A DNA stretch of 49,842 nt from Candidatus Kapaibacterium sp. (GCA_016788605.1 JAEUSO010000001.1:1-49842), one strand, 5' to 3'. Counted from the stretch's first letter, positions 15,066 to 35,306 are shown. The notes: generated by a model not told the origin, from the letters alone. Made by a program: numbers and translations.

Positions 15066-15239
15066 CTACTTTGTAGAAGATGCTTTCAGTTTCGCTTCCT
15101 CTTGCAATTGCTTCTTCAACTTACGCCGCCGTGATTGCATTTTTTTCTTGTTCATAATCGCGCGGAACTCTGCAAGTTCTTTATCAGACCACCTGCCGGG
15201 TACGACGACAAAATCAACATCTAATGGTTCTCGAATCAT
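15066..15239 (-). CDS. small basic protein (57 aa), not in the supplied ORF track
   Basis: Hand translation gives MIREPLDVDFVVVPGRWSDKELAEFRAIMNKKKMQSRRRKLKKQLQEEAKLKASSTK. Its ATG overlaps the GNAT stop codon (ATGA). Confidence 0.45.
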   Translation of the reverse strand: MIREPLDVDFVVVPGRWSDKELAEFRAIMNKKKMQSRRRKLKKQLQEEAKLKASSTK

Positions 15240-15775
15240 TCAAACCTCCAAAAGCTTTTGAAATACCTCTCAACTAACTTTCTTGCACGTGTTTCATCAA
15301 TATGTAATCGTAATGACCTGCCGACTTGCTCTGCACCTAAACTTTGTATGTAGTGCTGAACCAAACCGGATTTTGACAAGAATGCAACATATCCCTGATA
15401 GCCACGCTCGAACGCTGTTTTACAGGCAAATGCAAACATGTTGCCAGCTACTCCACGATACATCCTTTTCCTGCCTTGATTGTGCTTCGCAGAGTTAATC
15501 AAATTTACGAAAATATGGTCTCCCATATCCATAATACTGATAAGCCCTTGTATGACAGACGGATTGCCGACGACAGTTAGTTTGTACACCTCCGTTTGTT
15601 GTTGTTGTATCTCATCTGACCAATCAAAACTCCAGTCGGCGCTATTCAATTTTGCAACGTCGGCGGGTGTCATCCTTGTACAGACCGTATCGAAGGATTC
15701 CCCCTGTGCGTTTTCAATCGAGTTCGTGAGTTTATCAACGGTGATGGAAATTTCCCGTTTGTACGGTGTTTTCAT
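15236..15775 (-). CDS. GNAT-family N-acetyltransferase
   Basis: 179 aa from the ATG at 15775, 13 nt after the upstream stop. The acetyl-CoA-binding-like region is KRMYRGVAGNMFAFACKTAFERGYQGYVAFLSKSGLVQHY. Confidence 0.65.
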   Translation of the reverse strand: MKTPYKREISITVDKLTNSIENAQGESFDTVCTRMTPADVAKLNSADWSFDWSDEIQQQQTEVYKLTVVGNPSVIQGLISIMDMGDHIFVNLINSAKHNQGRKRMYRGVAGNMFAFACKTAFERGYQGYVAFLSKSGLVQHYIQSLGAEQVGRSLRLHIDETRARKLVERYFKSFWRFE

Positions 15776-15788
15776 GGATGAGATTGTG

Positions 15789-17417
15789 TTAGGTGCAATC
15801 CGGGCGCACACGTACCGTTTCCTTGCAATTCCAACGCTTGCGGAGAACTGTAACCGGTACGTCCGCATCAGTTTGTTTAGCAGGGCGGAGATACCAGTTA
15901 TCGTATGTTTTTTCGGTGTTACAGCAGCACTTCTTTTTGCCGGTGGAGGTACGGCAAGGCAATACCACCACTTTCACGCACGAGAGCGCACAACGCGCCC
16001 CGTAGCCGCCTTCTGCGCTCTGTGTAGTGCTGTTCCATGTGTAGCCAAAAAGGTCATCGAGGTACAGGGCAAAGAAGTACGTGCCGGGTTCGAGCGTTGT
16101 TGTGATAATTGCATTCACTGCGAGCTGTTCCACGGGAAGTGATGCGCCCAAGAGGTGATTGCAATTATTCGTGCTGTCTATGCGCTGTTCTTGGTCTAAG
16201 AACGTGCGTGTTTCAGCCAATGCCTGTTTAGAATACTGAAACCGGAATGTCATGTCGCGCCCGTTGCCGGTAACGCCCATGAAGCGGTTGTAGCCCAACG
16301 CAGAATGCTTATCATATTCACCGAGCCAATCGTAGCCCGTTTCAGTATTGATCCTGTTCAACTTGTCGTAGTTCCCGCTGTTCCGGTCTTGCTCGAAAAC
16401 GTCTGCAAAATTCACCGGTACATGATACATGTTCAATCCCGTAGGTTGCTCGAATGCAAGCGGCAACACCGAGGGATTGTTTTTCAGGAACATATTCCCC
16501 ATGGCTGTACGCAGCTCATCCATCGGGCAAAGGGATTCATTCGTTCGTGCAGGGCGCACGTACCGGAGGGATACGTTTGCGTTCTGACTGATGCGAATGC
16601 CGATACCATTGCCAAGTTCCCATGTGTCGAGGAATGGAACGTACAAGTTCACGTGCGTGGCTTTGCAACGCTCGATAACGATTGTCTGCTCCTTGGCGCG
16701 GCGCACCGGAAGCGTACCGCACATTTCGCGCTGTTCGTGGTTCTGCAACACATATTCATTCACCAAATCAACGAGCGTCCGGCGGCGGCGGGTGCCATTC
16801 AAAACTTCGTACCACCACGCCACATCCCAACGGCGAGGAAAGCAGTATTGAGCTATGCGAGACCAGTAGCGTTTGTTGTTCACACCACAGGCGGGCTGTC
16901 CTTGTAGCGAATCAGTCCATGAATCATACCGTTCTTGACACGTTACGTTGTCCTGCGGGCATGGAAATGGGTTATCCCAGTCGTAGATTGGGGGCGACCA
17001 TGTTTCTTGCTCCTGATATTGTTCTGTGTCATCGGCGGTGATTTCCACCGATGTGCCGGATGCGGTTGGCGGAGGTGGAGCGGGTGGTAGTGTCTCTTCC
17101 GTCGTCTCGTCTGTTTTTGTTATCGTGCGTGTGGTAGTGTTGTTGTCTGAACACGTTTTACACGGCGATGAGAGATACCGTGTGATACGTCCGCCGCTCC
17201 GCTCGAATATCTCATACACAGGTCCATCGGCAGTATTGGACTTAAAACGAACGCGCCGGTTGGGGTCGGATGCACTGCCATCATCATTTGTACCCCAACG
17301 GATTGGATTGCGCCCGGTTGCGCCGCCCGCACGGGTGATGAATCGCCCTTTGCTGTCGCAGCCCGTTTGCGAGCCGTTGCGAAGCGCGTCACGTAGTGAT
17401 GATGCGTTGCGAATCAT
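15789..17417 (-). CDS. large late protein with C-terminal cysteine-rich DNWYLRP module
   Basis: 542 aa from the ATG at 17417, 1 nt after the upstream stop. The C terminus, GKKKCCCNTEKTYDNWYLRPAKQTDADVPVTVLRKRWNC, is paralogous to part of 31133..31510. Confidence 0.7.
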   Translation of the reverse strand: MIRNASSLRDALRNGSQTGCDSKGRFITRAGGATGRNPIRWGTNDDGSASDPNRRVRFKSNTADGPVYEIFERSGGRITRYLSSPCKTCSDNNTTTRTITKTDETTEETLPPAPPPPTASGTSVEITADDTEQYQEQETWSPPIYDWDNPFPCPQDNVTCQERYDSWTDSLQGQPACGVNNKRYWSRIAQYCFPRRWDVAWWYEVLNGTRRRRTLVDLVNEYVLQNHEQREMCGTLPVRRAKEQTIVIERCKATHVNLYVPFLDTWELGNGIGIRISQNANVSLRYVRPARTNESLCPMDELRTAMGNMFLKNNPSVLPLAFEQPTGLNMYHVPVNFADVFEQDRNSGNYDKLNRINTETGYDWLGEYDKHSALGYNRFMGVTGNGRDMTFRFQYSKQALAETRTFLDQEQRIDSTNNCNHLLGASLPVEQLAVNAIITTTLEPGTYFFALYLDDLFGYTWNSTTQSAEGGYGARCALSCVKVVVLPCRTSTGKKKCCCNTEKTYDNWYLRPAKQTDADVPVTVLRKRWNCKETVRVRPDCT

Positions 17418-17418
17418 G

Positions 17419-17754
17419 TTAATCGTAGAGTGAGGGTAATACAACGCCGCCAAGTGCCGCCCCGCCCGCAACCCACAGCGGATCAATCGAGCGCGTCATG
17501 CTGAACGACATTACCGTGCCTACCGCCGCACCGAACAGCAATCCTTGCCAGTTGAACGCCATGCCACCGTCGGCAAGCCCGTCATTGAGTGATTGTACAG
17601 GTTCTTCGTTCTTCACACCTCTAAGTTCGTAGCTCATAGCGCGGTACATTCGCCCCGTGCTGTCGGCAATGATATACCCGTCCCCGGATTGCCGCACAAT
17701 TCGGTACGGTTGATTGTTACCGCGATAAACGACCGCTTGATTGATGCTATACAT
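17419..17754 (-). CDS. small protein with C-terminal glycine-zipper TM segment
   Basis: 111 aa. The hydrophobic tail is WQGLLFGAAVGTVMSF...WVAGGAALGGVVLP. Confidence 0.6.
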   Translation of the reverse strand: MYSINQAVVYRGNNQPYRIVRQSGDGYIIADSTGRMYRAMSYELRGVKNEEPVQSLNDGLADGGMAFNWQGLLFGAAVGTVMSFSMTRSIDPLWVAGGAALGGVVLPSLYD

Positions 17755-20700
17755 ACGCTTTTCCTATAATGTATGAGTTAGATTTTTGCTTGATACCAAA
17801 GATTGGGAACGGCGACCCGATAACTCCGTCGCGGTGTTTCAGGAGCGTTGCAACGCCACTGTGAACGTGGACGTTGAAATCAACCATGTTTGCAAGTCGC
17901 GGGAATCCTTCATACTGCCGTCCGTCCTTCGTGGAAATCAAGTTGAAGATAAACGAGACCGCCGGAAAATCTTCCATGAGTGCAAACACATCTTCCTGCT
18001 CGACGTGCCAAAATTGCAGCGAATCAATGATACAGAACATAATGTCGGGATGGTTACGCAGCGTGCTACGCAGTCCGTTGATGGATAGCGAATCATGGAA
18101 GAGAATATCCTTTGTTATCCGCATACGTTTTGCCCGTTCGCCGACACGTCCGTCTTTAACTTTTTCTTCAGTAAGCACTACGAGCGTCTTACCGTTGCGG
18201 GCAAGGTCGTCTGCAATCATCAATATGAGCGATGATTTACCCGAACCCGGAAGCCCCCACGTTATGCCCGTGAATCGTCGTTTGAGTGTACCGAACAGCT
18301 TTGCAGTGCGGAACAGTCGCACAGGCGTTAATTGCACAGCCACAGCGTCGCGCAGCGTGTAGAATTGCTCTGCGGCGCGGTCGTTCAATAGTTCATGCTC
18401 GATGCAGAAGGGTTCAACCGTTTCCGTTCTTGATTCAATACAAATCTCGTCGTTGGTAGGCACGTCGGTTGCCACGTCGGATGCAGCGATGATTGCATCG
18501 TTAGCGATCCTATCACGGAGTCCAAATAATCCCTGTTGGTCGTTACTATTCAGATTGCCTCCGCGTTCGCGCAGTGCAAGTAATTCGCGTTGCACAGCAA
18601 GCACAACATCGGTGTATTTAGCAACTACCTTTTCGCGGAGTTCCGGTGTGTACTTATCAGCGTGTGCGGCTATCTCATCCAGCTTGCGTTCCAACGCTTT
18701 TTTCGCTTCGGCAAGTTCTTTTTCCTTCTCGCGCAGGGCTTCATCATACATCTGTTGTCCTGCATCGCGTCCGGCGTAGTTGTTCAGGTTGAGCGGCGTT
18801 TCAGGTGAGGATTCTATCTGTCCGAACGGAAACCGGTTCAGAATAACTTTTTCGGCAAACGTACTGAACTCATTACTGTTTGTGAATCGCTTGCCTTGTG
18901 TTTTGTAATTCGCCCGCAGGTAGTCGTACATTTCGTTTTGATGCTGCCGCGTCAAATCAGGATATGCCTCTACAACCTCGCCAATCCATCGTGCCATGCT
19001 TTCTACGTCTTTATACTCGTCGCTGGCACGGCTGAACGTGGCTAAGTCGGCAATTACCTTGCTCTCGCTGTCAAGGAGTGATAGCAGAAACACCGTTCGG
19101 CATGATTTATCATACAGAGAACGGCATGTCTCCTCGATTTCCTTTTTCGTCCGCGCCTTGCCACGGAGCAGACGCAGGTACTTTGCATTCTCGGCGTTGC
19201 TTTGAGCGCGGGTGCTTGCGTTGTCGGTATAGGCAATTGCGATTGCCTCTTCTTCGGTGATGTTTTGAAACACGAAAGCCGGGAAATACTCTTCGTTCAG
19301 TATCCGCAATGCTGATTCTCTGTGATGACCGCCAAGCACGTAGTAAAACCCATCAGGAGCAAGCCACAGTTTAAGGGGGTCAAGTTTCTTCCTGTCGAAG
19401 TTGCGAACAATTTCATCAACCTTATCTTTCGAGAAATCAGATCTTGGTTGAAATCGCCGTGCATCAGTCCGCACCAAGTGTGCATAAATCATTTGCACAC
19501 CCGAATCTACTGATTGCGTTGGTGGTACAGGTGGTGGTGATTCCGGTTGTGGTGGTGTCGGTGTTGCTTGCTCCGGTGTCTCTTGGATGGCTGTTCGTTT
19601 GGATTGGTTTGCCTGTTGCTCGCGCAGAAACTTCGTCGAAATATAGGTTGCTTCTTTCGAGCGTAAATTACCTTCGTCATCAATGTATTGCGAGCCGGTG
19701 CGTACCGATGGTTCGGTATTTCCTTGCAATGCAATCAAGTCATCAACATACATCACGAACCATTCGTCTTTATAGTCATAGAGACGCACAACATCTACAA
19801 TTTTATCACCTACTTGTTGGCGTGACAACTGTGCGCCAAAGTATGAGCCGTACTGTCTTTTAATAGATTCTTGAGCTTCTTTATCAATGGTGCTTGACCA
19901 TTGCAGCACTTTAATATACTTCGAGCTGTGTATATCGCCTGTGTAGTCAATATGGTGAGATGCACTTCGAGCGATAACCATTTTCCCGCTACGAATCTCG
20001 CTTTCCAAAACCTTCCGGTTCACAGTAGTACCACTACCGGCATACATGTTTATTTTACGCCCTGCTTCGCGCTCTACGGTTTCTTTCTTATCAATCGAAT
20101 CCACATTCACTATTTCACCAGCCGCCACAACATCATCAACATAGGCATAATACACGCCGTGCGTTGCAATGACAGGGATGTTACGGTACGTTGTCACGAT
20201 TCCACGGCGACCGTAGCTAATAGCAACAGCATTGTAGTATTCCTCTTCAATAGTATTATGTATGCCCTTGTATCGCTGATGCTGCTTTTCCTTGAATGCC
20301 AACCCTAATAACTCATTTCGTCCAACCCAGTAGGGCTGCATTACCCTGTATGTTTCGTCTTCATTCGGAGCAAGGTTGTGCAAAGAACTCAATGGTAATT
20401 CAAGACCTTGTTTGAACTCGCCGGATACTCTTCGTTTGATGTTACGCTGCATGATTATACCAACAACCCTACCGTCCATCCATTCACGTTGCAACACATC
20501 TGCGCGCACTTTTGTATTCATCTTGCTCATGTCAATGCGACGGGATTTTTTACGTTCCTCATCTTGCTTTGCAGAACTCTTGATTTGCTCTACCAGCGAT
20601 ACATCCTTTGTGAGCGGAATACGCTCTGCATGAATAGTAAATCCCCGACCCCACGAGCCGACTGTTTCCATCGTGGGTATTCCCTGCGATAGCAGCTTTG

Positions 20701-21328
20701 CCCTACGTGCATTCTTATTGGCATTGGTGTTACCATTGTATGTTTCGTATCCATCGCTGTACTTACTCTTTTCGACAAGGAGAAAGGTTTTATCTGTTCT
20801 TTTCCATGAGTTGCCCCACGCATCAGTAACAATATCTCCCGTTGTTGCTGTTTCCAACCACTGCACTGTTGTTCCCGTTGCTGATACTGGCTTTACTTCT
20901 TCAACCTCTTCCGGTTCAACAATCTCTTCCGGTTCAACAATCTCTTCCGGTTCTTCTGCCGGAATTGTTACGCTCTCTTCTGAACGCATCGAAAACAAAT
21001 CATCTTGATTGACAACAGCAGGGAGCGCATCGAATGGGCGAGTGCGCTCCTCTGGTGTTGGCGCAGTTGGTGAAGGGGGGGACACCGACCGTTTTTCCGT
21101 TTTTAGTGTAGCCGCACGCAACTTGGTAACTTTATGCCCTGCCTTTATATCATCCCATGATATGCCCGCAAACGTGCCGTCGGCAAACTCAACGTATCCG
21201 CTTGTGGCGGAGACGGCTCGAAGCCAACCGTTTTTTCCTCGTGCATATACGTCCATCCCTACCGTATAGGTAGTACGTCCTATGGTTGCTTTGGTATATC
21301 CGTTCTGATATTTTTTGGGCAGTTGCAT
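17747..21328 (-). CDS. 1193-aa multidomain protein: ParB/Srx-like domain plus C-terminal RecA/DnaB-like P-loop ATPase
   Basis: ParB-type motif: FQPRSDF...DPLKLWLAPDGFYYVLGGHHRESAL (GGHHR at 19319..19333). ATPase motifs: Walker A GLPGSGKS (18233..18256), Walker B-like FCIIDSLQ, and LKHRDG near the C terminus. An acidic EEPEEIVEPEEIVEPEE repeat lies near the N terminus. Confidence 0.75.
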   Translation of the reverse strand: MQLPKKYQNGYTKATIGRTTYTVGMDVYARGKNGWLRAVSATSGYVEFADGTFAGISWDDIKAGHKVTKLRAATLKTEKRSVSPPSPTAPTPEERTRPFDALPAVVNQDDLFSMRSEESVTIPAEEPEEIVEPEEIVEPEEVEEVKPVSATGTTVQWLETATTGDIVTDAWGNSWKRTDKTFLLVEKSKYSDGYETYNGNTNANKNARRAKLLSQGIPTMETVGSWGRGFTIHAERIPLTKDVSLVEQIKSSAKQDEERKKSRRIDMSKMNTKVRADVLQREWMDGRVVGIIMQRNIKRRVSGEFKQGLELPLSSLHNLAPNEDETYRVMQPYWVGRNELLGLAFKEKQHQRYKGIHNTIEEEYYNAVAISYGRRGIVTTYRNIPVIATHGVYYAYVDDVVAAGEIVNVDSIDKKETVEREAGRKINMYAGSGTTVNRKVLESEIRSGKMVIARSASHHIDYTGDIHSSKYIKVLQWSSTIDKEAQESIKRQYGSYFGAQLSRQQVGDKIVDVVRLYDYKDEWFVMYVDDLIALQGNTEPSVRTGSQYIDDEGNLRSKEATYISTKFLREQQANQSKRTAIQETPEQATPTPPQPESPPPVPPTQSVDSGVQMIYAHLVRTDARRFQPRSDFSKDKVDEIVRNFDRKKLDPLKLWLAPDGFYYVLGGHHRESALRILNEEYFPAFVFQNITEEEAIAIAYTDNASTRAQSNAENAKYLRLLRGKARTKKEIEETCRSLYDKSCRTVFLLSLLDSESKVIADLATFSRASDEYKDVESMARWIGEVVEAYPDLTRQHQNEMYDYLRANYKTQGKRFTNSNEFSTFAEKVILNRFPFGQIESSPETPLNLNNYAGRDAGQQMYDEALREKEKELAEAKKALERKLDEIAAHADKYTPELREKVVAKYTDVVLAVQRELLALRERGGNLNSNDQQGLFGLRDRIANDAIIAASDVATDVPTNDEICIESRTETVEPFCIEHELLNDRAAEQFYTLRDAVAVQLTPVRLFRTAKLFGTLKRRFTGITWGLPGSGKSSLILMIADDLARNGKTLVVLTEEKVKDGRVGERAKRMRITKDILFHDSLSINGLRSTLRNHPDIMFCIIDSLQFWHVEQEDVFALMEDFPAVSFIFNLISTKDGRQYEGFPRLANMVDFNVHVHSGVATLLKHRDGVIGSPFPIFGIKQKSNSYIIGKAYV

Positions 21329-21344: not shown

Positions 21345-21662
21345 TTATGACAGCTTCGCCGAAAACTTTTTAATACGTGGCTTGGTCTTGCAATTCAGCT
21401 TGGCTTCATCACTTACTGACTTTGCTTTCTCGCGGTATTGCTGACCTAATTTAGTAGCACGTGCGGTAGCTCTTGTAAGTTCTGATTTAAGTTTATTCAG
21501 AGACTTCACTGCCAACTTTTGCTTTTTGGAACAAAGATTTGGATTGTTTTTTTCTTTCTCTGCACGTGCTTTTGCCCTCTCAACAGTTGCCTCATATTTT
21601 TTCTTCAACGATTCGGCAGATGCATACAGTTGCTTTGCCGATTTAGGTTTGTTCGATGCCAT
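21345..21662 (-). CDS. lysine-rich helical protein (possible DNA-binding)
   Basis: 105 aa, strongly basic (KAKARAEKEKN..., KTKPRIKKFSAKLS). Confidence 0.55.
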   Translation of the reverse strand: MASNKPKSAKQLYASAESLKKKYEATVERAKARAEKEKNNPNLCSKKQKLAVKSLNKLKSELTRATARATKLGQQYREKAKSVSDEAKLNCKTKPRIKKFSAKLS

Positions 21663-21711: not shown

Positions 21712-21939
21712 TTACCATTTGCCTGCGTCGCAATGCTCTACATGTTTCGTGATACTGTGTTCGCCTGTGAATTTGGTTTTCTCACTCACCGGACATCCGC
21801 AGAGTGAACACGTATCATTGATGTTGTTTGTACACGTTGAGCATATTGACATTCTTTTGCGTGATAATGCCGTTTCGGGCAGAAGTTGCGCTGTGACATA
21901 CTTCACCGCTCCAGTTGCATTATGACGGATTTCCTTCAT
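21712..21939 (-). CDS. small cysteine-rich (zinc-ribbon-like) protein
   Basis: CSTC..x9..CSLCGC ... HVEHC. Start at the ATG at 21939, 1 nt after the upstream stop. Confidence 0.5.
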   Translation of the reverse strand: MKEIRHNATGAVKYVTAQLLPETALSRKRMSICSTCTNNINDTCSLCGCPVSEKTKFTGEHSITKHVEHCDAGKW

Positions 21940-21940
21940 G

Positions 21941-27937: not shown

Positions 27938-28647
27938 TACTTCACTCCTATTAGTTCCATTTCGCAAATGAGGGGATATAGCACATACTTTATAGTCGCC
28001 GTGCTATCAATCACTTTCTGTGCGGTGAATGCAGTGACTTTAATCCAATCCGTTGAGTTATCCGGCACTTTACCAATGCTGATAGGTAATGGTAATTCAA
28101 GCTCGCACGGCAGATACATACCCACACTCAAATCCCCTTTGTGGAGTGTATCATAGTTGTTTGTTTCGTTACCACCTATCACCGTGTCCGCCCCTGCTTG
28201 AACAATCGGTCGGAAGAAGTTTGGATTCCATCCACCCGTCTCGCCATGGCGAAACCGTGATTGCACATAGCCGTCTGTCGCACTTGATAGCGATGTGTCA
28301 AACGCTGTCTTTACGTTTATATCGCTGCCATTGCCAATCCACGCATCATCAACCCTGAACCGCAACCGTGTAATGAACACTTCCCTGTACTGCGCCAGTG
28401 AGCGCATACGTCTGTTGCAGCGCAATCGTCCAAAGCTGCCGCTTCCGACAAGCGTATTCATTTGCGCCTGTGTTTTCGTGGTAGTGAATGCCTCGAAGTG
28501 AGTGAACATTCCTTCTACGTCGTCAGTAACATCGCCGTTTGTGATGTTGCCGGTTTGCGTTGTTGACGAGAATACAAGGTTGTGATACCCGAACTTCTTC
28601 AGATCCGGTTCGTTACAATGTTGTATGATTATATCTGCAATTGGCAT
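27937..28647 (-). CDS. beta-rich late protein (capsid-component candidate)
   Basis: 236 aa with no TM segments and strand-like alternation. It is part of a trio of small beta-rich proteins. Confidence 0.6.
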   Translation of the reverse strand: MPIADIIIQHCNEPDLKKFGYHNLVFSSTTQTGNITNGDVTDDVEGMFTHFEAFTTTKTQAQMNTLVGSGSFGRLRCNRRMRSLAQYREVFITRLRFRVDDAWIGNGSDINVKTAFDTSLSSATDGYVQSRFRHGETGGWNPNFFRPIVQAGADTVIGGNETNNYDTLHKGDLSVGMYLPCELELPLPISIGKVPDNSTDWIKVTAFTAQKVIDSTATIKYVLYPLICEMELIGVK

Positions 28648-28652: not shown

Positions 28653-29045
28653 TTAGATATAGCGACCTTGAAGTGCGACCGTCACTCTGACATTACCTAC
28701 CAGTTGCGGTGATATAGCTGCGTCGCGCTTGAATATGTATTTTATGTCGTCACCAGGTTGTACGACAATCCCTTTGAATGACTCTGATTCTAGAACTTGA
28801 CGCAATAGTTGCAGCGGTATGTAACCCGTTATATCACTGTTTACATCATCAACGATATTTACCTTTCCTATTGTAATCTGTGCAATGACTTCATCCTGAG
28901 CATCGGCAGCATCTTTTACCCCGTTGTCATCACTTATCAGAACAGAACCACTTTCAATTAAAAATGGATTATTGCCTGTTATAGTGATTGTTTCCGCCTG
29001 ACTTGCAACAGCACCTACCAATATCTTACGCAGTAGCTTTATCAT
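28653..29045 (-). CDS. beta-rich small late protein (capsid-component candidate)
   Basis: 130 aa, with 5-nt spacing to the next gene. Confidence 0.6.
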   Translation of the reverse strand: MIKLLRKILVGAVASQAETITITGNNPFLIESGSVLISDDNGVKDAADAQDEVIAQITIGKVNIVDDVNSDITGYIPLQLLRQVLESESFKGIVVQPGDDIKYIFKRDAAISPQLVGNVRVTVALQGRYI

Positions 29046-29063: not shown

Positions 29064-29099
29064 TTAAGAAAAGCAGTGCCGCAGAGAGTGCGGCACTGC
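29064..29099 (-). terminator. intrinsic terminator / attenuator after the 217-aa gene
   Basis: Perfect 11-bp stem GCAGTGCCGCA/TGCGGCACTGC (29073..29099) with a 5-nt loop. It is followed on the minus strand by TTTTCTT. Confidence 0.65.
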
Positions 29100-29117: not shown

Positions 29118-29771
29118 TTATACGTTAGCTACAACCTGTTGGCTTTGATACGCTATGAAAAATTTGATGTAAAAACAGCGACCGGTTGCCGAGACGTTTG
29201 TATGCGAACCAACAGGCAAGTGTGGGTTTGTTACCGCCGATGCGGGTGTGGTAAAGTCAAGACCCGTAGGCACTTCGACCTCTAAGTCAAAGTTTGCACC
29301 GCCGGGTACACCGATAGGTTCAGCAAATGCCGTATATGGCTTTTCCTTCTGCGTTATCACAATCAAATCGCCTTCAACCAGATATGTGACATTAACAGGC
29401 AGAAGTGTTTGCAACAGCATTGTGTAGACAGGTGTACCATTGACTTTAAAGTTGCATACAACATTCGTGAGGAATGATGCCAATGCTTCCTTCGTTGATC
29501 CTAATGCTTCCAATGCAGCAAATGCAACGAATGGTAGTGCCATGACAGCAAGGATATTACGCGGCTCGTTTGCCGGTGCAGGGAATTGAATATTTTGCAA
29601 CGCATCGGGTTTCTTTGTTTGCGATGATCCGAAAAGTTTTTGTGTTTTAGCGACCGATGCAGACGCATACACAACAGTGTCATAACCGAATTTCACGGTA
29701 TCACGTACCTGATTGGTAGTGTTAGCGGACATGAGCGCAAGATTTACTTGCATTGCTTCATTATTTGACAT
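29118..29771 (-). CDS. beta-rich late protein (major capsid candidate)
   Basis: 217 aa. It is flanked by the longest intergenic gaps in the late operon and followed by a strong hairpin, which fits a highly expressed structural gene. Confidence 0.6.
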   Translation of the reverse strand: MSNNEAMQVNLALMSANTTNQVRDTVKFGYDTVVYASASVAKTQKLFGSSQTKKPDALQNIQFPAPANEPRNILAVMALPFVAFAALEALGSTKEALASFLTNVVCNFKVNGTPVYTMLLQTLLPVNVTYLVEGDLIVITQKEKPYTAFAEPIGVPGGANFDLEVEVPTGLDFTTPASAVTNPHLPVGSHTNVSATGRCFYIKFFIAYQSQQVVANV

Positions 29772-29838
29772 ATGAGTAAATAGATAGTATGTGAATACAA
29801 TGTGATGCTACTCCATGTTCACGTACTTCTGTTTTACC

Positions 29839-30399
29839 TTACCACAGGGAGGACGAACTAAACTGCGTCGAAGCGTTCCGGTTAGCAAATGTTTGCCTTA
29901 CCTCTTGGTTAGCCGGTACCGTATTGCGAACTGCACCCATGCCATCATTTACCCCCGGCGAGATTGCCGTTGAACGAATGTCCTCCGGATTGTACATGAG
30001 TAAATCCGTACCGGGATACACAGCACCTATGTTGTCATTGATACCCTCGCTGAATGCTGCCGCCGCAGGAGGTGTTGTTGCTGTGGTGGAATCAGTTGTC
30101 CTTTCCGTCAGTGTGAAGAATTTCTTGTTAGTCATCTTTTCAAACTGCGGTTCAGCAAGTGTTAGTATGTGTGCTGCAAACGCACCTGTTGCACCATTTG
30201 ACAGACCGGGAATATCGAACGCCTTGCCGGCTACGTAGGGAACTGCAAAACCAAGCAGTCCTGCAAGCCATCCGTTCATGCCGAACAGCGACGGCAGTAC
30301 ACGATATACTACGCCGCCACCAACTGCATAGGCATTATCAATCAAAGCGTCCGCTTTGAAGCCCTTTGCAATGTTGGATTTGAAATTCAATGAAGCCAT
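29839..30399 (-). CDS. membrane protein with Gly-rich TM helices
   Basis: 186 aa. Hydrophobic stretch AVGGGVVYRVLPSLFGMNGWLAGLLGFAVPYVAG. The C-terminal part is Thr/Ala-rich. Confidence 0.6.
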   Translation of the reverse strand: MASLNFKSNIAKGFKADALIDNAYAVGGGVVYRVLPSLFGMNGWLAGLLGFAVPYVAGKAFDIPGLSNGATGAFAAHILTLAEPQFEKMTNKKFFTLTERTTDSTTATTPPAAAAFSEGINDNIGAVYPGTDLLMYNPEDIRSTAISPGVNDGMGAVRNTVPANQEVRQTFANRNASTQFSSSSLW

Positions 30400-30439
30400 T
30401 GTTTTGCTCCGTTAATTAAAAAATGTGTGAGTGAGATTT

Positions 30440-31096
30440 TTACTTATTAAGAAAATACACTACTGTTCCAACTGCCGCCGCAGTTGCAACAAGCGAGAGA
30501 ACAAATGTTGTTGTGCTGATACCATCATCGCAATCGCACGGCGCATCTGCATACACAACAGGAGGTGGAGCCGGATACGTTGTCGTGGTCGTAGTGGTTG
30601 TGTCGCCGCTTCCTGTATCCACAGCGTTAGCAAGCCCACGCACACGGTCTGCCATCGTCGGGTTTGATACAGGAGTACCGTTTTGGTCACATTCTATCTC
30701 GCTTGATTCACCCTTGCATGTCCGCACCTGCTTCACAACCGGCACTTGCGGGTCATCGGGTGATACGCGGTTTGGGGTAAGCCACCACCGTTCGCGGATG
30801 ATTTCTTCCTCGCAATCAGGCGGGCAATCTTCCGTGCATGGTGAGGCAGGAAGCATACCACCAAAAATTGGTGTAGCACCAAGACCGGAAAGGTTGCGTT
30901 GTTGAAACCGTACTTGCGGTTCTCGCAGCCATCTGTTTTTCACTTGTTCGGGTACGAGCTTGTCGCACTCCGCATTGCACTTGATATTGCCTTTGCAACG
31001 AGTATAACAATCGCGCCACTGGCTCTCCCACGATTGTTGCAGATGTTCGGCAGTCGTGGCGGTATCAGCACCGCGTTTTCCATAATCAATAAGCAT
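30440..31096 (-). CDS. cysteine-rich protein with poly-Thr tract and C-terminal TM
   Basis: 218 aa with many CxxxC-type pairs. RWWLTPNRVSPDDPQVPVVKQVRTC is related to the DNWYLRP module. It also has a TTTTTTTT tract and the TM helix FVLSLVATAAAVGTVVYFL. Confidence 0.6.
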   Translation of the reverse strand: MLIDYGKRGADTATTAEHLQQSWESQWRDCYTRCKGNIKCNAECDKLVPEQVKNRWLREPQVRFQQRNLSGLGATPIFGGMLPASPCTEDCPPDCEEEIIRERWWLTPNRVSPDDPQVPVVKQVRTCKGESSEIECDQNGTPVSNPTMADRVRGLANAVDTGSGDTTTTTTTTYPAPPPVVYADAPCDCDDGISTTTFVLSLVATAAAVGTVVYFLNK

Positions 31097-31132
31097 ACGT
31101 CACTCTTAGAAAATTTGAAATAGTAGTTGTTC

Positions 31133-31510
31133 TTACATACGTTCTGCGTACTTCGAGCCGCATCCGCTCAACGCAGCACCCTTGCATTTTCCACCGCAGT
31201 TACACGCAACCCGGTCATTGAGCGATGAACCGCATTTGCATCCGCGAACGCGGTCATTCAATGCTTCATCAGGGCAGCGCGGGCGCACTTGTGTAGCTGT
31301 GTCACGGCAGACGTACCGGCGGCGAACAACAACGACTTGAACGTCATTCGGCGTTTGTTGCTGTGGTCGCAAATACCAGTTGTCGTTTTCGGATTGTGTT
31401 GTGCAGCAACACTTCTTGCCCTTTGGCGTTGATGTTGCTTGCAGTGTCGAGCCAAGTATTTGTCCTTGCCCTTGCAGGTTTGTTAAAGGTATGATAGGCA
31501 TTAGTTCCAC
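31133..31510 (-). CDS. small cysteine-rich protein with DNWYLRP module
   Basis: 125 aa. KGKKCCCTTQSENDNWYLRPQQQTPNDVQVVVVRRRYVC is paralogous to the C terminus of 15789..17417. Confidence 0.6.
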   Translation of the reverse strand: MELMPIIPLTNLQGQGQILGSTLQATSTPKGKKCCCTTQSENDNWYLRPQQQTPNDVQVVVVRRRYVCRDTATQVRPRCPDEALNDRVRGCKCGSSLNDRVACNCGGKCKGAALSGCGSKYAERM

Positions 31511-32166
31511 TCCGTATAGTTATATGGAGCGCATTTGCTTGTATCAACGCAGATGCGCTTTTCTTTGATTACTTCTTTTGTTCGAGTTACCACCGTCGGC
31601 TTTTCCAAAATCCGTGTACGCTCAACAACGGTATTCGTTCGTGGTGCGCGAACAACAACCAATCGAGCAGGTCGGCGGCGCACAACCGTTTGCCGGACGG
31701 CAACTGCGCTGTTTTGCTGTTGTGGAGCAAGTGGCTGATGCACAGGCATTTGCACAGGTGCGGGATTCTCGGATGTGTTCGAGGATGTGTTCCGGCTGTT
31801 TGTATCCTGCGAGTTTGTGATATTGATATTGATAGGACGCTCTGCGGGTACTGCTTGCGGTTGTGCGTTTTGCATGATGGCTTGCGGTTGGTTATCGGAT
31901 TGCTGTAACGATGATTGCAGCATTCGCAGCATGAGCGCAGTCGTCAAGTCAGTTCCGGCGTTTGTTGATGCAACCGGCGCGGGCTGTTGTATGTACTGCA
32001 CAGATGGTTGAACAATCGCGGGCGGCTGAACATACTGCACAACAGGTTGCACAACGGGTTGTATCATCGGTAGATACGGTTGCTGTGCATAGCACGGCTG
32101 TTGTGTAGCGCACGGACGGCGTTCTACGCTTAGTTGTTTCGGGCAGCAGTTCACAACAGGAGGCAT
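31501..32166 (-). CDS. Gln/Pro/Val-rich low-complexity protein
   Basis: 221 aa. QPVVQPVVQYVQPPAIVQPSVQYIQQPAPV, with Cys-containing termini. Confidence 0.55.
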   Translation of the reverse strand: MPPVVNCCPKQLSVERRPCATQQPCYAQQPYLPMIQPVVQPVVQYVQPPAIVQPSVQYIQQPAPVASTNAGTDLTTALMLRMLQSSLQQSDNQPQAIMQNAQPQAVPAERPININITNSQDTNSRNTSSNTSENPAPVQMPVHQPLAPQQQNSAVAVRQTVVRRRPARLVVVRAPRTNTVVERTRILEKPTVVTRTKEVIKEKRICVDTSKCAPYNYTEWN

Positions 32167-33629
32167 TAGCGATACTCCGAATATTTATAGACGGATCGCG
32201 CACTATCTATAATCACCTGCACACCAACATCCTCTGCAATGTCACGACCGAAAGCAAAACGTTTTTCAAGCGGCACATATATTGGCATGACAAAGTTTTT
32301 GCCTATGCTTGCAAGCTCATTTGCTTTCTGCTTCATGCTGTTCAGGAGCAATCCGTCGAATACTTCAGTACCGGTAGGTTGCCCTGCAAGCATATTCATA
32401 AATCCACGTCGGATTTCAGGACTGGTAATGTCGTTTGTTCCCGTTGCTATTGCATTCACGACCGAAGCCACGCCGGGGAGGACTGCGGGCAGGGTAGTAC
32501 CGTTCGAGCATGATGCGTATATCTGTTGCAGGTTGTCATTGAGTATGGATGTCCCTGCGTCAATAATGGAATCGCCAATCGTGTTTGTACGAAGATTGGC
32601 AGCAAGTTTGTTCACTGCATTTGCAGCAATCGAGTTTTGTATCGTGCTTATGGTAGGTACATAGTCATTGGCATATTGCAACACAATATCCGCATAGTTT
32701 CCTTTTTGAAGGTTACTGATGACACCACGAATGTTTTTATCAAGCGGAATGCCTAACGTGTCGGCAATCGCCGCATAGTCGCTACGTTGAATGTTTGTGA
32801 TGAGTGATTCCGCTTTGTTCATGTATGGGCGGTAATCAACCGGCACGATAGCCGAGGCAACTTGTATCAACGTATTTACTTGAACCTTCTCACCATTCAC
32901 GGCAGAGTTTGCGAGCGAGAACGCAGCTTGCGTCAGTTGCGGAGGTACGCCGATTAAGGCAAGTCCCGCTGATGCGGCGGCGGCTATGTATTGGTAGGTT
33001 GCATCCCACGCAGATTGAAACGTAATCGGCTCGCCGGAAAGAACTATCAGTATAGGTTTATCAAACTGTACGTTCAACGCTTGCAATGCACCGCAAAGAC
33101 CACGAACGGTGTTGTAATCGGGTAACGAGCGTCCTCCTATCTCAAAGCGTTTATTATCGCCTCCGCCCCAAGATGTTGCATCTCTGTCCTCGCCGCGAAA
33201 CGTATGCACCCCCTGTACCATCATTGAATTGTACTCGCCCATGCCGGGTCCCATGTGCCGTTCAAAATCGAACCGCTCCACATTTCGTAACATCCCCGAC
33301 TGCTCGATAATTTTGTATATCGGCTTTGATTCCATTACGATAATGTACTCATTGCCGTTATCATCGGTGAACACGCCGTAATAACTATGATGGGTCGCAC
33401 CCGGAACGCCTATTGCAGCACCGCGAATTTCATCCATAGTGATAGTATGAAACCCGAATTGAGCAAAGTTCATGTCATTCTCAAACCAACCGTCGGCAAT
33501 GTCGGCAGCGACACGAATATCTTGCAGTGCCTCAAAATGAGGAACAATAGATGAAGCGTTATGTTGAAAGTTAGACACGGTAAATTTTACTCCGTAGAAT
33601 TGGCGATACTTCATGTCCGAAACCATCAC
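32166..33629 (-). CDS. large late protein, unknown function
   Basis: 487 aa. The N-terminal half is beta-rich and the C-terminal half is Ala/Ile-rich and helical. The start is uncertain because it overlaps the upstream gene. Confidence 0.65.
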   Translation of the reverse strand: MMVSDMKYRQFYGVKFTVSNFQHNASSIVPHFEALQDIRVAADIADGWFENDMNFAQFGFHTITMDEIRGAAIGVPGATHHSYYGVFTDDNGNEYIIVMESKPIYKIIEQSGMLRNVERFDFERHMGPGMGEYNSMMVQGVHTFRGEDRDATSWGGGDNKRFEIGGRSLPDYNTVRGLCGALQALNVQFDKPILIVLSGEPITFQSAWDATYQYIAAAASAGLALIGVPPQLTQAAFSLANSAVNGEKVQVNTLIQVASAIVPVDYRPYMNKAESLITNIQRSDYAAIADTLGIPLDKNIRGVISNLQKGNYADIVLQYANDYVPTISTIQNSIAANAVNKLAANLRTNTIGDSIIDAGTSILNDNLQQIYASCSNGTTLPAVLPGVASVVNAIATGTNDITSPEIRRGFMNMLAGQPTGTEVFDGLLLNSMKQKANELASIGKNFVMPIYVPLEKRFAFGRDIAEDVGVQVIIDSARSVYKYSEYR

Positions 33630-34158
33630 GGCGGTTTGAACCGTCGTCCATCACACAATCAACCGGTATAACACCAACACGTGGAATCTCAACCATTGCG
33701 TACACATGGGTAAATGGATTGTTCGGCTGATTTTCAACTTTCCATGCCACGACGCGGAAGTACAGATTCTTGAATATACCCGTTGCAAGGCAGATCGTCA
33801 CATAGAGCAATGCCATGTCGTCACAATCGCCCTTGCGGTCAAACTTGATAATATGACGTGGTGCGCGGACGAACTCATCGTGACCGTCGCTTGTATAGGT
33901 TACATTCTTGACAACCCAGTCATAGATACTTTGGGCTGTTGCAAGCGGTTCGTAGTTCACTGATGATGCAATCTTGCGAGCAAGTGATATTACTATCTCG
34001 TCCAGATAATCGAGCCGTGCAAGCTCGCACATCAATCCTACCGTTGCATCAATTCCCGCATCACCTTTGGGTAATTCGCCGTAATCCCATTTACGCACAC
34101 CGTCGCTCACTTTTTGGAGAAGCGTCGGTACATTCGGATATGCAGGGATTCGGTTCAT
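33571..34158 (-). CDS. transglutaminase-like cysteine protease
   Basis: KGDCDDMALLYVTICLATGI (Cys), FTHVYAMVEI (His) and VIPVDCV (Asp), in transglutaminase-core order. Confidence 0.65.
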   Translation of the reverse strand: MNRIPAYPNVPTLLQKVSDGVRKWDYGELPKGDAGIDATVGLMCELARLDYLDEIVISLARKIASSVNYEPLATAQSIYDWVVKNVTYTSDGHDEFVRAPRHIIKFDRKGDCDDMALLYVTICLATGIFKNLYFRVVAWKVENQPNNPFTHVYAMVEIPRVGVIPVDCVMDDGSNRRDGFGHEVSPILRSKIYRV

Positions 34159-34505
34159 TATACGGCTTTACGAACTGCTCCGGTAATAAAAAACGATGCT
34201 ATACCTGCACCGATACCATACCACACATTTTTAGTAATCACGCCAACCGTAATTCCACCGACCATACCACCAATCATGTCAGGCACGTATTGTTTCAATT
34301 CCTCAACCGTACCTTGCTTGCATATCTCGGCAACAAACTCTTTCGGCAGACCTGCGGCGGCTTCTTTCCATCTCTCCGGCGGAAGTGTTGTTAAAACCCC
34401 TTTAATCTTATCAATACCAATACTCACTACGTCAATGCTTGCAACTCTATCATTCAGAGCAATCAAGCGCATCGGCGGCTGTTGTTGTGTGTTTAGCGGC
34501 GGCAT
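34158..34505 (-). CDS. small membrane protein
   Basis: 115 aa. C-terminal sequence GGMVGGITVGVI...YGIGAGIASFFITGAV. Confidence 0.6.
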   Translation of the reverse strand: MPPLNTQQQPPMRLIALNDRVASIDVVSIGIDKIKGVLTTLPPERWKEAAAGLPKEFVAEICKQGTVEELKQYVPDMIGGMVGGITVGVITKNVWYGIGAGIASFFITGAVRKAV

Positions 34506-34508
34506 AGT

Positions 34509-35306
34509 TTAGCGTGGTTTCATTGCAGAAAAGTAGATGATGCCGCCGACAACGACGACAGCACCGACTACATAAACAGCGGTCATAATTCCATCGAACA
34601 GACCTTTAATTTTATCACCGACAAGATTAGCATAATCGTTTGCTTTTCCTACTGGCGACGGCTCGCCCTTCGGCACTTCATTACGATATTCAAGGTTGGC
34701 ATGGTAGGTAAGTGGCGCAATAATGAAATTTTCTTTGAACGCATTAGATTGATTGGCATAGTACACTTCATCAAGTATTCGTTTTACAAGTTGTTCAGAA
34801 TATCCTGATGTGATTGCAACTTCACGAATAACGAACGGTGCAGATTTTGAACTCGGAACATACTCATCTATGCGCTTTGATTTATCCTTAGCAAGAACAC
34901 GATTTTGATATGATTGAAGCGTCTTTTCTAACTGCTCAAATTTTAGATACCCTTTACCACGTGTCGGGTCATTTTCAAACCAATTATTCTGCTTGTTGTA
35001 GTTCAACTGTGCATCTGACAGTCCATACGATTTACCCAAGTTCCAGTTAATCCGATTCCAAACAGTTATCAAGTCCTCATTGTAATACTGACCGAATACA
35101 GCACCAAACATTGCTTGCAAGTCATTCCAGTAGTAATCCCAAGAAGAGTATTCATAGTTACCCATATACTTACCTCCGAACACAACCGGCATAAGAACCG
35201 CAAGCCCAGTAATAGGTAAGAATCCGACATTATCGGAAATACCTGCATCGGCAACCACATTGCACGATGAACAAGAGGGTTTCTTTGAATACGTAATTAT
35301 AGCCAT
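34509..35306 (-). CDS. first late-operon protein, C-terminal TM anchor
   Basis: 265 aa. The tail is AVYVVGAVVVVGGIIYF. Confidence 0.65.
   Translation of the reverse strand: MAIITYSKKPSCSSCNVVADAGISDNVGFLPITGLAVLMPVVFGGKYMGNYEYSSWDYYWNDLQAMFGAVFGQYYNEDLITVWNRINWNLGKSYGLSDAQLNYNKQNNWFENDPTRGKGYLKFEQLEKTLQSYQNRVLAKDKSKRIDEYVPSSKSAPFVIREVAITSGYSEQLVKRILDEVYYANQSNAFKENFIIAPLTYHANLEYRNEVPKGEPSPVGKANDYANLVGDKIKGLFDGIMTAVYVVGAVVVVGGIIYFSAMKPR

Follow-up and report, generated by a model that had tools for sequence, protein, structure and literature searches.

SSIP-1, or Salisaeta icosahedral phage 1, is an internal-membrane phage (T=49, 44 kb) whose capsid is believed to contain two proteins, each with a single barrel (PMC6260650, PMC4958249, PMC4124505). 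Its virion protein gp40 is the predicted packaging ATPase (PMC4124505). The Helvetiavirae (realm Singelaviria), namely the Sphaerolipoviridae (SH1 and HHIV-2), the Matsushitaviridae (P23-77) and the Simuloviridae, are tailless internal-membrane dsDNA viruses with adjacent small single jelly-roll capsid genes and a defining FtsK/HerA packaging ATPase. The Tectiviridae and Corticoviridae (PRD1 and PM2) have an internal membrane, many small membrane proteins, a virion transglycosylase (in PRD1 the lytic transglycosylase P7) and vertex spikes, together with a double jelly-roll capsid protein and an A32-type ATPase. The Portogloboviridae are represented by Sulfolobus polyhedral virus 1 (SPV1), a membrane-containing icosahedral dsDNA virus with an archaeal host.

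The window analysed here is a stretch of 49,842 nucleotides from Candidatus Kapaibacterium sp. (GCA_016788605.1 JAEUSO010000001.1:1-49842). We assign a probability of roughly 0.68 to the reading that it includes a late operon with the virion and lysis genes of a 33.65-kb temperate phage, integrated at tRNA-Asn, with a tailless icosahedral, internal-membrane virion and belonging to an SSIP-1-related group.

Prophage borders and organization of the late operon

The element extends from 2174 to 35826 (~33.65 kb) in a Kapaibacteria (Bacteroidota) genome. It is bordered by a 51-bp exact direct repeat, placed on the plus strand. The attL copy (2174..2224) is the 3' part of the tRNA-Asn gene (2145-2219) and attR (35776..35826) is the second copy. 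The gene of a tyrosine integrase (2413..3435, minus strand; Pfam Phage_integrase, 9.5e-16) adjoins the repeat of the tRNA-Asn 3' end. The element is a complete and intact temperate phage integrated into tRNA-Asn.

The late operon comprises 29 ORFs on the minus strand, from 15236 to 35764. The initial annotation had described a chain of 29 minus-strand genes; the ORFs are real. If each gene is given its likeliest start, 20 of the 28 junctions are tight (an overlap or a gap of at most 16 nt). Gaps of 36-72 nt flank the genes at 29118-31096, and one of 182 nt lies before the attR-proximal gene (35489..35764). This gene, the first of the late strand inside attR, codes for a conserved small protein of 91 aa with homologues in relatives L001 and L003.

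The module's conserved first gene (34509..35306) codes for a membrane protein of 265 aa that has two hydrophobic helices. Its neighbours are, in order, a conserved 115-aa protein whose C-terminus is glycine-rich and hydrophobic (34158..34505), a transglutaminase-like cysteine protease or hydrolase (33571..34158; Pfam Transglut_core, 8.9e-10) and a 487-aa protein (32166..33629; 470 aa from the annotated start), the most-conserved large protein of the set. The N-terminal half of the latter is beta-rich and leads into a hydrophobic segment, the C-terminal half is helical, Ala/Asn-rich and of low complexity, and the PDB, Pfam, PHROG and NCBIfam returned no match. Next are a Gln/Pro-rich 221-aa protein (31501..32166), a Cys-rich 122-aa protein with a KKCCC..DNWYLRP..RP.C module (31133..31501), a Cys-rich 218-aa protein with a C-terminal membrane anchor (30440..31096) and a conserved 186-aa protein (29839..30399), whose N-region is glycine-rich and hydrophobic and which is a candidate capsid-associated membrane protein.

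Beyond the capsid candidates described below lie the genes of an SLT lytic transglycosylase (27407..27937, or up to 27967; Pfam SLT, 1.6e-10), a coiled-coil, Pro-rich 394-aa protein (26221..27405), a conserved small 89-aa protein (25959..26228; ORF extendable to 26342), a 94-aa protein that has three hydrophobic helices and a holin-like position (25662..25946), and a CHAP peptidoglycan hydrolase whose N-terminus carries a signal or anchor (25127..25759, or up to 25795; Pfam CHAP, 5.4e-6; PHROG endolysin, 5.9e-14). The late operon would carry a lysis cassette. A 355-aa fibre or spike protein (24063..25130; PHROG tail-fibre repeats, 4.5e-18) precedes three small genes (23038..24063; 109, 95 and 139 aa, the second a membrane protein), a second, conserved CHAP hydrolase that has its membrane anchor at the C-terminus (22428..23036; Pfam CHAP, 8.8e-6), a 167-aa protein with membrane helices at both termini (21941..22444), a conserved 79-aa zinc-ribbon protein (21712..21951; phrog_13558, 3.7e-7) and a very basic helical protein of 105 aa (21345..21662). 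The strand ends with the 1193-aa ParB-like and ATPase protein (17747..21328), a 111-aa protein whose C-half is glycine-rich and hydrophobic (17419..17754), a Cys/Trp-rich 542-aa protein (15789..17417) that terminates in the same CCC..DNWYLRP module as the 122-aa protein, and, as last gene, a 210-aa protein (15236..15868) with no match in Pfam or PHROGs. The fibre-like protein, the three peptidoglycan hydrolases and the transglutaminase-like protein had been recognized by eye, and the PHROGs repeats, the two CHAP and one SLT domains and Transglut_core agree with these assignments.

Nine products had been named as carrying strong hydrophobic helices. The Kyte-Doolittle profile peaks at 1.6 or above in six of them (34509, 30440, 25662, 23447, 22428 and 21941), whereas in those at 34158, 29839 and 17419 the hydrophobic segments are glycine-rich and weaker. 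An N-terminal anchor is also present in the CHAP protein at 25127, and the abundance of membrane proteins is borne out.

Tailed-phage hallmarks

At the profile level, the hallmarks of tailed phages are absent. The sequence and profile searches of the late operon against Pfam, PHROGs, NCBIfam and the PDB gave no match to a terminase, portal or HK97-type capsid protein, as the initial annotation had claimed, and this includes 32166..33629 and 15789..17417, two of the ORFs suggested as possible hiding places. No sheath, tube, tape-measure or baseplate protein was matched in the element. Among its ORFs of at least 80 aa there is a single Walker A motif ([AG]x4GK[ST]), located in the RecA/RadA-like C-terminal domain of the 1193-aa protein.

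These results bear on the possibility of a very diverged tailed phage, in which terminase, portal and HK97 capsid would be hidden in the 487-, 542- and 394-aa proteins and the jelly roll would be a decoration or receptor-binding protein. The tail-fibre-type repeats of the fibre, a faint Caudo_TAP_N match in the large protein of one relative and the occurrence of jelly-roll domains in tail proteins, as in the BFVD matches to minor tail proteins, are in its favour. On the other hand, the only Walker A motif lies in a RecA-like domain and therefore leaves no TerL candidate, the 394-aa protein has a coiled-coil, proline-rich sequence, half of the 487-aa protein is low-complexity and helical, and SSIP-1, the source of the homologues described below, is tailless. 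A tailed phage is thus very improbable. The computational evidence supports a non-tailed, membrane-containing virion with a jelly-roll capsid, which is favoured by the lack of tailed hallmarks, the predicted jelly roll of the 217-aa protein and the three homologues of SSIP-1 virion proteins.

Capsid candidates

Three adjacent beta-rich proteins of 217, 130 and 236 aa had been put forward as capsid candidates of jelly-roll size. The first of them (29118..29771) is modelled confidently by AlphaFold with the family alignment, as an eight-strand jelly roll (pLDDT 89.3, pTM 0.83). The family to which it belongs numbers, by an exhaustive HMMER search, at least 57 clusters when grouped at 50% identity, all of ~200-225 aa, whose distant members (E 1e-9 to 1e-12) occupy the same module on 32-46-kb contigs. 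VP4, the major capsid protein of SPV1, is the top structural match of the model among solved and predicted viral structures (best solved match in Foldseek, E 4.3e-5, probability 1.0), with TM-scores of only 0.38/0.45. SPV1 VP10, the SH1 capsid protein (probability 0.89) and the PBCV-1 MCP are also among the Foldseek matches, and those in BFVD include SPV1 VP4 and CRESS-virus capsids as well as the minor tail proteins. Non-capsid jelly rolls (PHM, BcsB and Cry toxins) score nearly as high as the capsids, so that the fold by itself does not prove a capsid role.

Directly 3' of the 217-aa gene there is a terminator-like hairpin (29073..29099, minus strand) of 11 bp, G+C-rich and followed by a U-run, which ranks first among the terminator-like sites of the late module in a scan (z = -6.1). 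Hairpins occur at the equivalent place, 3' of the 217-aa homologue, in relatives L006 and L010. We propose the 217-aa protein, a predicted single jelly roll, as the major capsid protein.

The fold of the other two proteins is less well defined. The conserved 236-aa protein (27937..28647) has the invariant motif YVQSRFR..E.G.W.PNFF.P. Its AlphaFold model is weak (pLDDT 45.9), and its top 50 Foldseek matches are all jelly-roll capsid proteins, none of them significant; it is a candidate second capsid protein. The conserved, beta-rich 130-aa protein (28653..29045) is a candidate for either the vertex or a minor capsid component. Of the three proteins, the 217-aa one alone is modelled with confidence, and the folds of the 130- and 236-aa proteins are presumed.

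The SSIP-1 link and the ParB-like/ATPase protein

By sequence comparison, three late proteins are homologous to the SSIP-1 virion proteins gp34 (transglutaminase-like), gp43 (ParB-like) and gp40 (ATPase). The family of the transglutaminase-like protein matches gp34, with members up to 2e-16. The 1193-aa protein consists of a unique N-half, a ParB-like region (aa ~620-880) and a RecA/RadA-like ATPase (aa ~990-1180). Its residues 599-882 align with gp43 (34% identity, E 7e-41), and in a search of 50,697 phage records gp43 stands well ahead of every other match (9e-33). The C-terminal ATPase matches gp40 with E 1e-9 (7.5e-12 and 4.6e-13 for relatives).

The two phages further resemble each other in a run of similarly sized small structural proteins (gp45-48 of 210, 211, 256 and 132 aa in SSIP-1, compared with 217, 130 and 236 aa in the element), in their related host groups and in a comparable order of genome size. 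However, the comparison of the capsid candidates with gp45-47 is not significant (E 0.003-0.1 within the SSIP-1 proteome), gene order differs and most other genes are unrelated. Moreover, the lytic, halophilic SSIP-1 has a circular genome of 44 kb, whereas the element is an integrated prophage of 33.6 kb. It had been stated that bacterial internal-membrane phages are much smaller than 33.6 kb and that none carries this gene set; SSIP-1, with 43.8 kb and three genes in common with the element, contradicts both statements.

No FtsK/HerA packaging ATPase was found, the only ATPase being that of the 1193-aa protein, which is of the RecA/RadA/AAA_25 type, unlike that of known membrane-containing phages. 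The Helvetiavirae resemble the element in genome size (~31 kb in SH1), yet there is no sequence similarity and their second jelly-roll capsid protein has only a candidate counterpart here. With the Tectiviridae and Corticoviridae the design would be shared, but no gene is common, neither the double jelly-roll capsid protein nor the A32-type ATPase was detected, and the genome is two to three times larger. SPV1 would share its virion type with the element; there is no sequence similarity and no further common gene.

In relatives, the 1193-aa protein aligns with the C-terminal third of giant proteins of 1906-2321 aa, which contain ddrB-ParB/ParB_N, SNF2-helicase and Zeta-toxin-like domains. Such proteins resemble the giant 'polyvalent' proteins known from phages and from conjugative elements, reportedly described by Iyer, Burroughs and Aravind in 2017. 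The 1193-aa protein differs from these in lacking the helicase part, in its unique N-half of 600 aa and in an ATPase end that is kept across the whole group, like a core gene. ParB-plus-ATPase segments of polyvalent proteins are also found in conjugative elements and could have spread horizontally.

The element might alternatively be a non-viral integrative element, with an unknown type of conjugative or other envelope-spanning transfer apparatus. Its membrane proteins, wall hydrolases, adhesin and injected ParB-ATPase 'polyvalent' protein would then be parts of that apparatus, and the jelly roll a carbohydrate-binding or surface protein. The many membrane proteins, the SLT and CHAP domains, the variable adhesin-like gene, the near-capsid scores of cellular jelly rolls and the giant ParB/SNF2 helicase/Zeta-toxin proteins, which occur in phages and conjugative elements alike, fit this explanation. 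It is nevertheless improbable: Pfam gave no match to VirB4, a coupling protein or a relaxase, tblastn with the 487-aa protein found nothing in 72,556 plasmids, the three homologues are proven SSIP-1 virion proteins, distant relatives figure in IMG/VR as viral contigs of 29-35 kb, and a terminator behind the jelly-roll gene is what is expected behind a major capsid gene.

A virus of the same lineage could instead assemble in a portoglobovirus-like or pleomorphic manner. Basic proteins would condense the DNA, membrane and shell would enclose it, and no ATP-driven packaging would take part. The ParB-ATPase protein would then be an injected passenger that counters host defence or starts replication. 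SPV1, the best structural match, is without a packaging ATPase (PMC8812541). The ATPase type, its position at the end of giant helicase/toxin proteins in relatives and the very basic 105-aa protein encoded beside the 1193-aa gene point in the same direction. Against this, a gp40-like ATPase is kept in every branch examined, including a distant 31.9-kb contig, and is a separate gene in relative L015 and in SSIP-1, whose gp40 is part of the virion and predicted to act in DNA packaging (PMC4124505). We regard such an assembly as unlikely, and prefer the internal-membrane phage with ATP-driven packaging.

Conservation and proposed virion

MAGs of Kapaibacterium, Ignavibacteria and Chitinophagaceae contain the same module, as do metagenome contigs of 30-46 kb. 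The SLT gene lies directly 3' of the capsid-candidate genes in every relative, whereas the length in aa encoded in the fibre slot varies (355 here, 592+665 in L006, 871 in L010, 1170 in L017).

The phage particle would be tailless and icosahedral, with an internal lipid vesicle carrying the many small phage membrane proteins and vertex spikes formed by the product of the variable fibre gene. The SLT, membrane-anchored CHAP and transglutaminase-like proteins may be virion-associated wall-degrading enzymes for entry or exit. The RecA/RadA-like ATPase, fused to the ParB-like DNA-binding domain, is the best candidate for genome packaging.

A literature search found no published description of this phage group. 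Kapaibacterium belongs to the Bacteroidota and Salisaeta to the Rhodothermota, both within the Bacteroidota/Chlorobiota group. The element is best described as a putative tailless jelly-roll prophage related to SSIP-1, probably from an undescribed group of tailless phages. We propose that this group is widespread and unnamed in Bacteroidota-related bacteria, with SSIP-1 as its sole isolated relative.

The prophage at 2174-35826 and at least 57 related clusters may constitute a previously unrecognised lineage, of family rank or higher, comprising tailless dsDNA phages that are temperate, contain a membrane and infect Bacteroidota-related bacteria. [quoted passage not shown] The probability of this reading as a whole is put at roughly 35%. 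In the literature searched, no description was found of SSIP-1 relatives, of Helvetiavirae (Singelaviria) in Bacteroidota or of bacterial portoglobovirus-like viruses that would match the group.

Borders and gene content of the prophage

The last 51 bases of the tRNA-Asn region (2174-2224; tRNA gene at 2145-2219) recur exactly at 35776-35826. A tyrosine integrase gene (2413-3435) lies immediately inside the left copy of this repeat and a heptosyltransferase gene of the host just beyond the right one. The repeats, the adjoining integrase and the host gene outside them indicate that the island is an integrated element of 33.65 kb with both ends intact. Going by the database name of one of its proteins, the contig comes from a 'Candidatus Kapabacteria' MAG. 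The host, Kapaibacterium, belongs to the Bacteroidota (NCBI taxonomy); a host ORF of 1594 aa (45021-49805, plus strand) reaches the end of the window.

The left arm encodes a weak repressor-like protein and, adjoining the integrase gene, an outer-membrane beta-barrel protein (OMP_b-brl, Opacity-like; 3442-4161, minus strand), a possible lysogenic-conversion gene. The early region carries Dam-type (D12) and C5 cytosine (Dcm) methyltransferase genes and a small Pol-beta-like nucleotidyltransferase gene (10230-13494, plus strand); no replication protein was recognised in the early region of the element.

The late module consists of 29 minus-strand ORFs running from 35764 down to 15236 and linked by small overlaps or short gaps, as described in the initial annotation. 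The enzymes and the fibre assigned there by eye were recovered as two CHAP proteins (25127-25759 and 22428-23036), one SLT protein (27407-27937), one transglutaminase-like core (33571-34158) and one protein with tail-fibre-type repeats (24063-25130), and the remaining late proteins have no match in Pfam, PHROGs or NCBIfam. Nine products had also been named as membrane proteins. A hydrophobicity scan found strong helices in six of them, whereas the other three have weaker glycine-rich segments; the CHAP protein at 25127 carries a strong membrane helix as well.

Just upstream of the gene for the ParB-ATPase protein lies a 105-aa protein rich in Lys and Arg (21345-21662, minus strand), probably all-helical, which could condense DNA; the relatives have small genes in the equivalent slot. 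A Cys-rich module, KKCCC..DNWYLRP...V.V.R.R..C....RP.C, occurs at the end of a 542-aa protein (module at 15789-15950) and in the core of a 122-aa protein (31133-31501), and several small proteins of the relatives bear diverged copies of it in the same place. These proteins may share a module for anchoring or for zinc binding.

Hallmarks of tailed phages

The initial annotation reported no terminase gene and left open a very diverged tailed phage. The proteins of the element have no match to a large terminase in Pfam, PHROGs or NCBIfam. A six-frame scan of the whole element (ORFs of at least 80 aa) turned up a single Walker A motif, GLPGSGKS, which lies close to the C-terminus of the 1193-aa protein (17747-21328) and belongs to a RecA/RadA-like domain; no ORF fits TerL. 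Neither an HK97-fold capsid protein nor a portal was matched by sequence and profile searches (Pfam, PHROGs, NCBIfam, PDB). Searches of the PDB by sequence and profile with the families of the 217-aa (29118-29771), 236-aa (27937-28647) and 487-aa (32166-33629) proteins and with the 542-aa protein (15789-17417) returned nothing useful, and megablast of the late module against GenBank phages gave no match. A diverged tailed phage is unlikely, since the element holds no candidate for a terminase.

A single jelly-roll capsid candidate

The initial annotation proposed jelly-roll capsid candidates among three consecutive small beta-rich proteins. AlphaFold2 and Foldseek predict a confident single jelly roll for the 217-aa protein; the model of the 236-aa protein is of low confidence and its jelly-roll matches are not significant. 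The 217-aa model, built on an alignment of 59 sequences (mean pLDDT 89.3, pTM 0.83), opens with an N-terminal helix; a beta-sandwich comes next, in which one helix lies between the strands. Its top Foldseek match in the PDB is VP4, the Sulfolobus polyhedral virus 1 (SPV1) major capsid protein (6oj0_A; E 4.3e-5, probability 1.0, TM 0.38/0.45), with SPV1 VP10, the SH1 capsid protein and the PBCV-1 MCP at lower ranks. Among predicted viral structures (BFVD), SPV1 VP4 (second) and capsid proteins of CRESS-DNA viruses are at the top, and the best TM-score (0.49/0.50) belongs to I1ZBH9, a 211-aa entry that may be an SSIP-1 protein.

Jelly rolls of cellular proteins reach scores close to those of capsid proteins against this model; therefore, although the predicted fold is secure, the capsid role is argued from genomic context. 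That context is good. The 217-aa gene, one of the few late genes bounded by intergenic gaps, is retained throughout the family. Directly 3' of it lies the hairpin that most strongly resembles a terminator within the 20-kb operon (29099-29073, z = -6.1), and two relatives have hairpins of different sequence at the same place after the capsid-family gene. A major capsid gene followed by a terminator is a known arrangement, as in gene 10 of T7.

The 236-aa family gave a weak AlphaFold model (nine sequences, pLDDT 45.9); every one of its top 50 Foldseek matches is a capsid protein with a jelly roll (polyomavirus VP1, picornavirus, tymovirus), none of them significant. That the 217- and 236-aa families are paralogues was considered and rejected, hhalign having returned no relationship between them. 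The family of the 130-aa protein (28653-29045) matched neither the 217-aa family nor SSIP-1 gp44-48.

Homology to SSIP-1

SSIP-1 is an internal-membrane phage of about 100 nm with T=49 and a circular 44-kb genome (literature). Its gp40 is a predicted packaging ATPase (PMC4124505) and its sequence shows hardly any similarity to GenBank entries (PMC6356626). Its host, Salisaeta, is a member of the Rhodothermota, inside the Bacteroidota/Chlorobiota group. Prompted by the size of the BFVD entry I1ZBH9, the proteins of the window were compared with the 57 SSIP-1 proteins (JN880423) by local BLAST. Residues 599-882 of the 1193-aa protein match gp43, a 2319-aa virion protein (34% identity over 290 aa, E 7e-41), and residues 991-1150 align with gp40, likewise a virion protein (27% identity, E 1e-9); across the ATPases of the relatives the homology to gp40 reaches E 4.6e-13. 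When the C-terminal half of the 1193-aa protein was compared with 50,697 GenBank phage records, gp43 was by far the best match (E 9e-33, the next being 7e-7). Members of the transglutaminase-like family align with a further virion protein, gp34, at E-values down to 2e-16.

Judged by these alignments, the element encodes homologues of the SSIP-1 virion proteins gp34, gp40 and gp43, and these three genes are all that the two have in common. The HMM of the capsid family and hhalign placed gp45, gp47 and gp46, which are adjacent small structural proteins, among the top of the SSIP-1 proteome, but only marginally (E 0.003-0.17). [quoted passage not shown]

A novel conjugative apparatus of non-viral nature would account for the membrane proteins, the hydrolases and the ParB-ATPase, but would leave the homologues of virion proteins and the capsid-like gene unexplained. 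VirB4, a coupling protein and a relaxase are absent (no Pfam match in the 45 element proteins scanned) and the 487-aa protein has no match among plasmids. Such an apparatus is considered improbable.

The ParB-ATPase protein

In the relatives, the 1193-aa protein is replaced by a protein of 531-607 aa and a giant of 1906-2321 aa (11886-18851 in locus L013, 12157-18837 in L014 and 12157-18838 in L015). The giants carry ddrB-ParB/ParB_N, SNF2-helicase and Zeta-toxin/AAA_33 domains with a gp40-like ATPase at the end; in L015 the ATPase has been separated from the giant and has its own gene of 330 aa. The window holds a shortened, 1193-aa version with a unique N-terminal half of 600 aa. The ATPase also forms the C-terminal end of an 866-aa protein on a distantly related IMG/VR contig of 31.9 kb (E 3.5e-21 against the window, 4.6e-13 against gp40).

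A profile of the ATPase domain from four sources matches RecA and RadA/Sms in the PDB (RadA at 5e-11). In Pfam, the domain matches AAA_25 (all four members), AAA_24, KaiC and RecA, and one of the four members matches Pox_A32 at 4e-4. By these profile matches the ATPase is assigned to the RecA superfamily and is not a clear FtsK/HerA packaging ATPase. The gp40-like ATPase is present in every branch examined; given this conservation and its presence in SSIP-1 virions, we infer that it is the best candidate for packaging.

The family of relatives

The element is rare at close range. A word-index search of 5.8 billion clustered proteins returned one relative of the 487-aa protein, and the 236-aa query returned only itself. 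By pattern scans the module was located in a MAG of the Chitinophagaceae, a Peregrinibacteria-binned contig (CALMES010000067.1) and a JGI contig; the JGI type recurs in a 1.58-Mb Kapaibacterium contig and an Ignavibacteria MAG. Up to 18 contigs, drawn from several samples, bear the element type of the Peregrinibacteria-binned contig, and one of these carriers is assigned to 'Candidatus Peregrinibacteria'. Since the remaining hosts all belong to the Bacteroidota group, this bin assignment may be wrong. Two elements of this type, L006 and L007, are identical except that L007 carries, inside the late module, a 94-aa gene (14838-15122) with a Tad2-like Pfam match (PF11195, anti-Thoeris family).

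The relatives keep the gene order over the stretch that begins with the attR-proximal gene and ends with the zinc-ribbon gene (21712-21951 in the window). The fibre slot varies in size, as expected for a receptor-binding gene: 355 aa in the window, 592 plus 665 aa in L006, 871 aa in locus L010 and 1170 aa in locus L017. In the Kapaibacterium-type relative L015, an oppositely oriented DDE transposase fragment (5501-6453) interrupts the spike slot.

Exhaustive HMMER searching with the family of the 217-aa protein yielded 57 clusters at 50% identity, nearly all of 185-227 aa and matching over most of their length; the exceptions in length are a 1666-aa repeat protein and a 70-aa fragment. Two distant members (E 3.6e-12 and 9.4e-10) lie within the same module on contigs of 32-46 kb, in the order membrane protein, transglutaminase-like protein, proteins of about 480, 190, 200, 141 (exact) and about 255 aa, SLT and, later, CHAP. 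The 487- and 236-aa families are also recognisable on these contigs. Single-protein queries showed that IMG/VR includes some distant contigs, whereas patterns of the 487- and 236-aa proteins found no close relatives there. One distant relative, apparently free, is IMGVR_UViG_3300034272_002099 (31,873 bp), which has genes for a D5-like primase-helicase, for a 491-aa MoxR-like AAA+ ATPase with GPAGSGKT near residue 240 and, after the latter, for a protein of 463 aa; none of these three genes occurs in the window prophage.

Comparison with known groups

The element fits a known kind, the tailless internal-membrane dsDNA phage with a jelly-roll capsid. Two assignments were tried and rejected for want of any hallmark: classical type IV conjugation (VirB4, coupling protein or relaxase; one Walker A only) and a double jelly-roll phage of the PRD1/PM2 type (Bamfordvirae). 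The element proteins have no profile match to a double jelly-roll capsid protein or an A32-type ATPase; in contrast to the Bamfordvirae, the 217-aa capsid candidate has a single jelly roll and the ATPase is RecA-like.

The Helvetiavirae have two single jelly-roll major capsid proteins; here one jelly roll (217 aa) is predicted with confidence, and the 236-aa protein, with its low-confidence model, is a candidate for a second. The Helvetiavirae are defined by an FtsK/HerA packaging ATPase; profiles of the element's ATPase match RecA and RadA/Sms, which places the element outside that definition.

The likeness to the Portogloboviridae is the VP4-like single jelly roll of the 217-aa protein, at the level of fold and without sequence similarity. 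The host is bacterial here and archaeal there, no further gene is in common, and the ATPase conserved here contrasts with the absence of a packaging ATPase there. Published work gives the portoglobovirus capsid protein a basal position among dsDNA viruses with a single jelly roll (PMC8812541). An assembly of portoglobovirus type, with no ATP-driven packaging (PMC8812541), would agree with the fold and leave the conserved ATPase aside; it may apply instead, though with low probability.

Proposed mechanism

For an SSIP-1-like membrane phage, the observed gene content, the predicted fold and the homologies suggest the following course. Upon induction, the late operon would be transcribed from the attR side and the 217-aa jelly-roll protein would be overproduced thanks to the hairpin downstream of its gene. 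This protein would assemble on a vesicle carrying the phage membrane proteins, probably together with the proteins of 236 and 130 aa. The ParB-like domain would recognise the genome, and the fused RecA-like ATPase would drive or assist its entry. The variable fibre would form the vertex spikes. The SLT protein, the membrane-anchored CHAP protein (22428-23036) and the transglutaminase-like protein may be carried in the particle and open the wall at entry; the proposed role of SLT parallels that of P7 in PRD1, and that of the transglutaminase-like protein has its parallel in gp34, a virion protein of SSIP-1. A three-helix protein of 94 aa (25662-25946) and the signal-anchored CHAP enzyme (25127-25759) could act as the lysis pair.

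Significance

Few phages are both tailless and membrane-containing, and since 2012 SSIP-1 has been a solitary case, with neither known relatives nor a known capsid fold. The present element ties it to a broad set of prophages and of metagenome contigs of 30-46 kb from Kapaibacteria, Ignavibacteria and Chitinophagaceae, for which structure prediction now offers a confident and testable jelly-roll capsid candidate. Marker-based virus detection probably under-counts this group, since no PHROG is matched by any of the 59 members of the capsid family and the searches of IMG/VR yielded no close relatives. If the proposed reading is true, the group would have a packaging solution distinct from terminases and from FtsK/HerA ATPases. 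A bacterial lineage with a portoglobovirus-like capsid protein and a non-FtsK ATPase would bear on the origins of single jelly-roll viruses and on how often ATP-driven packaging was acquired.
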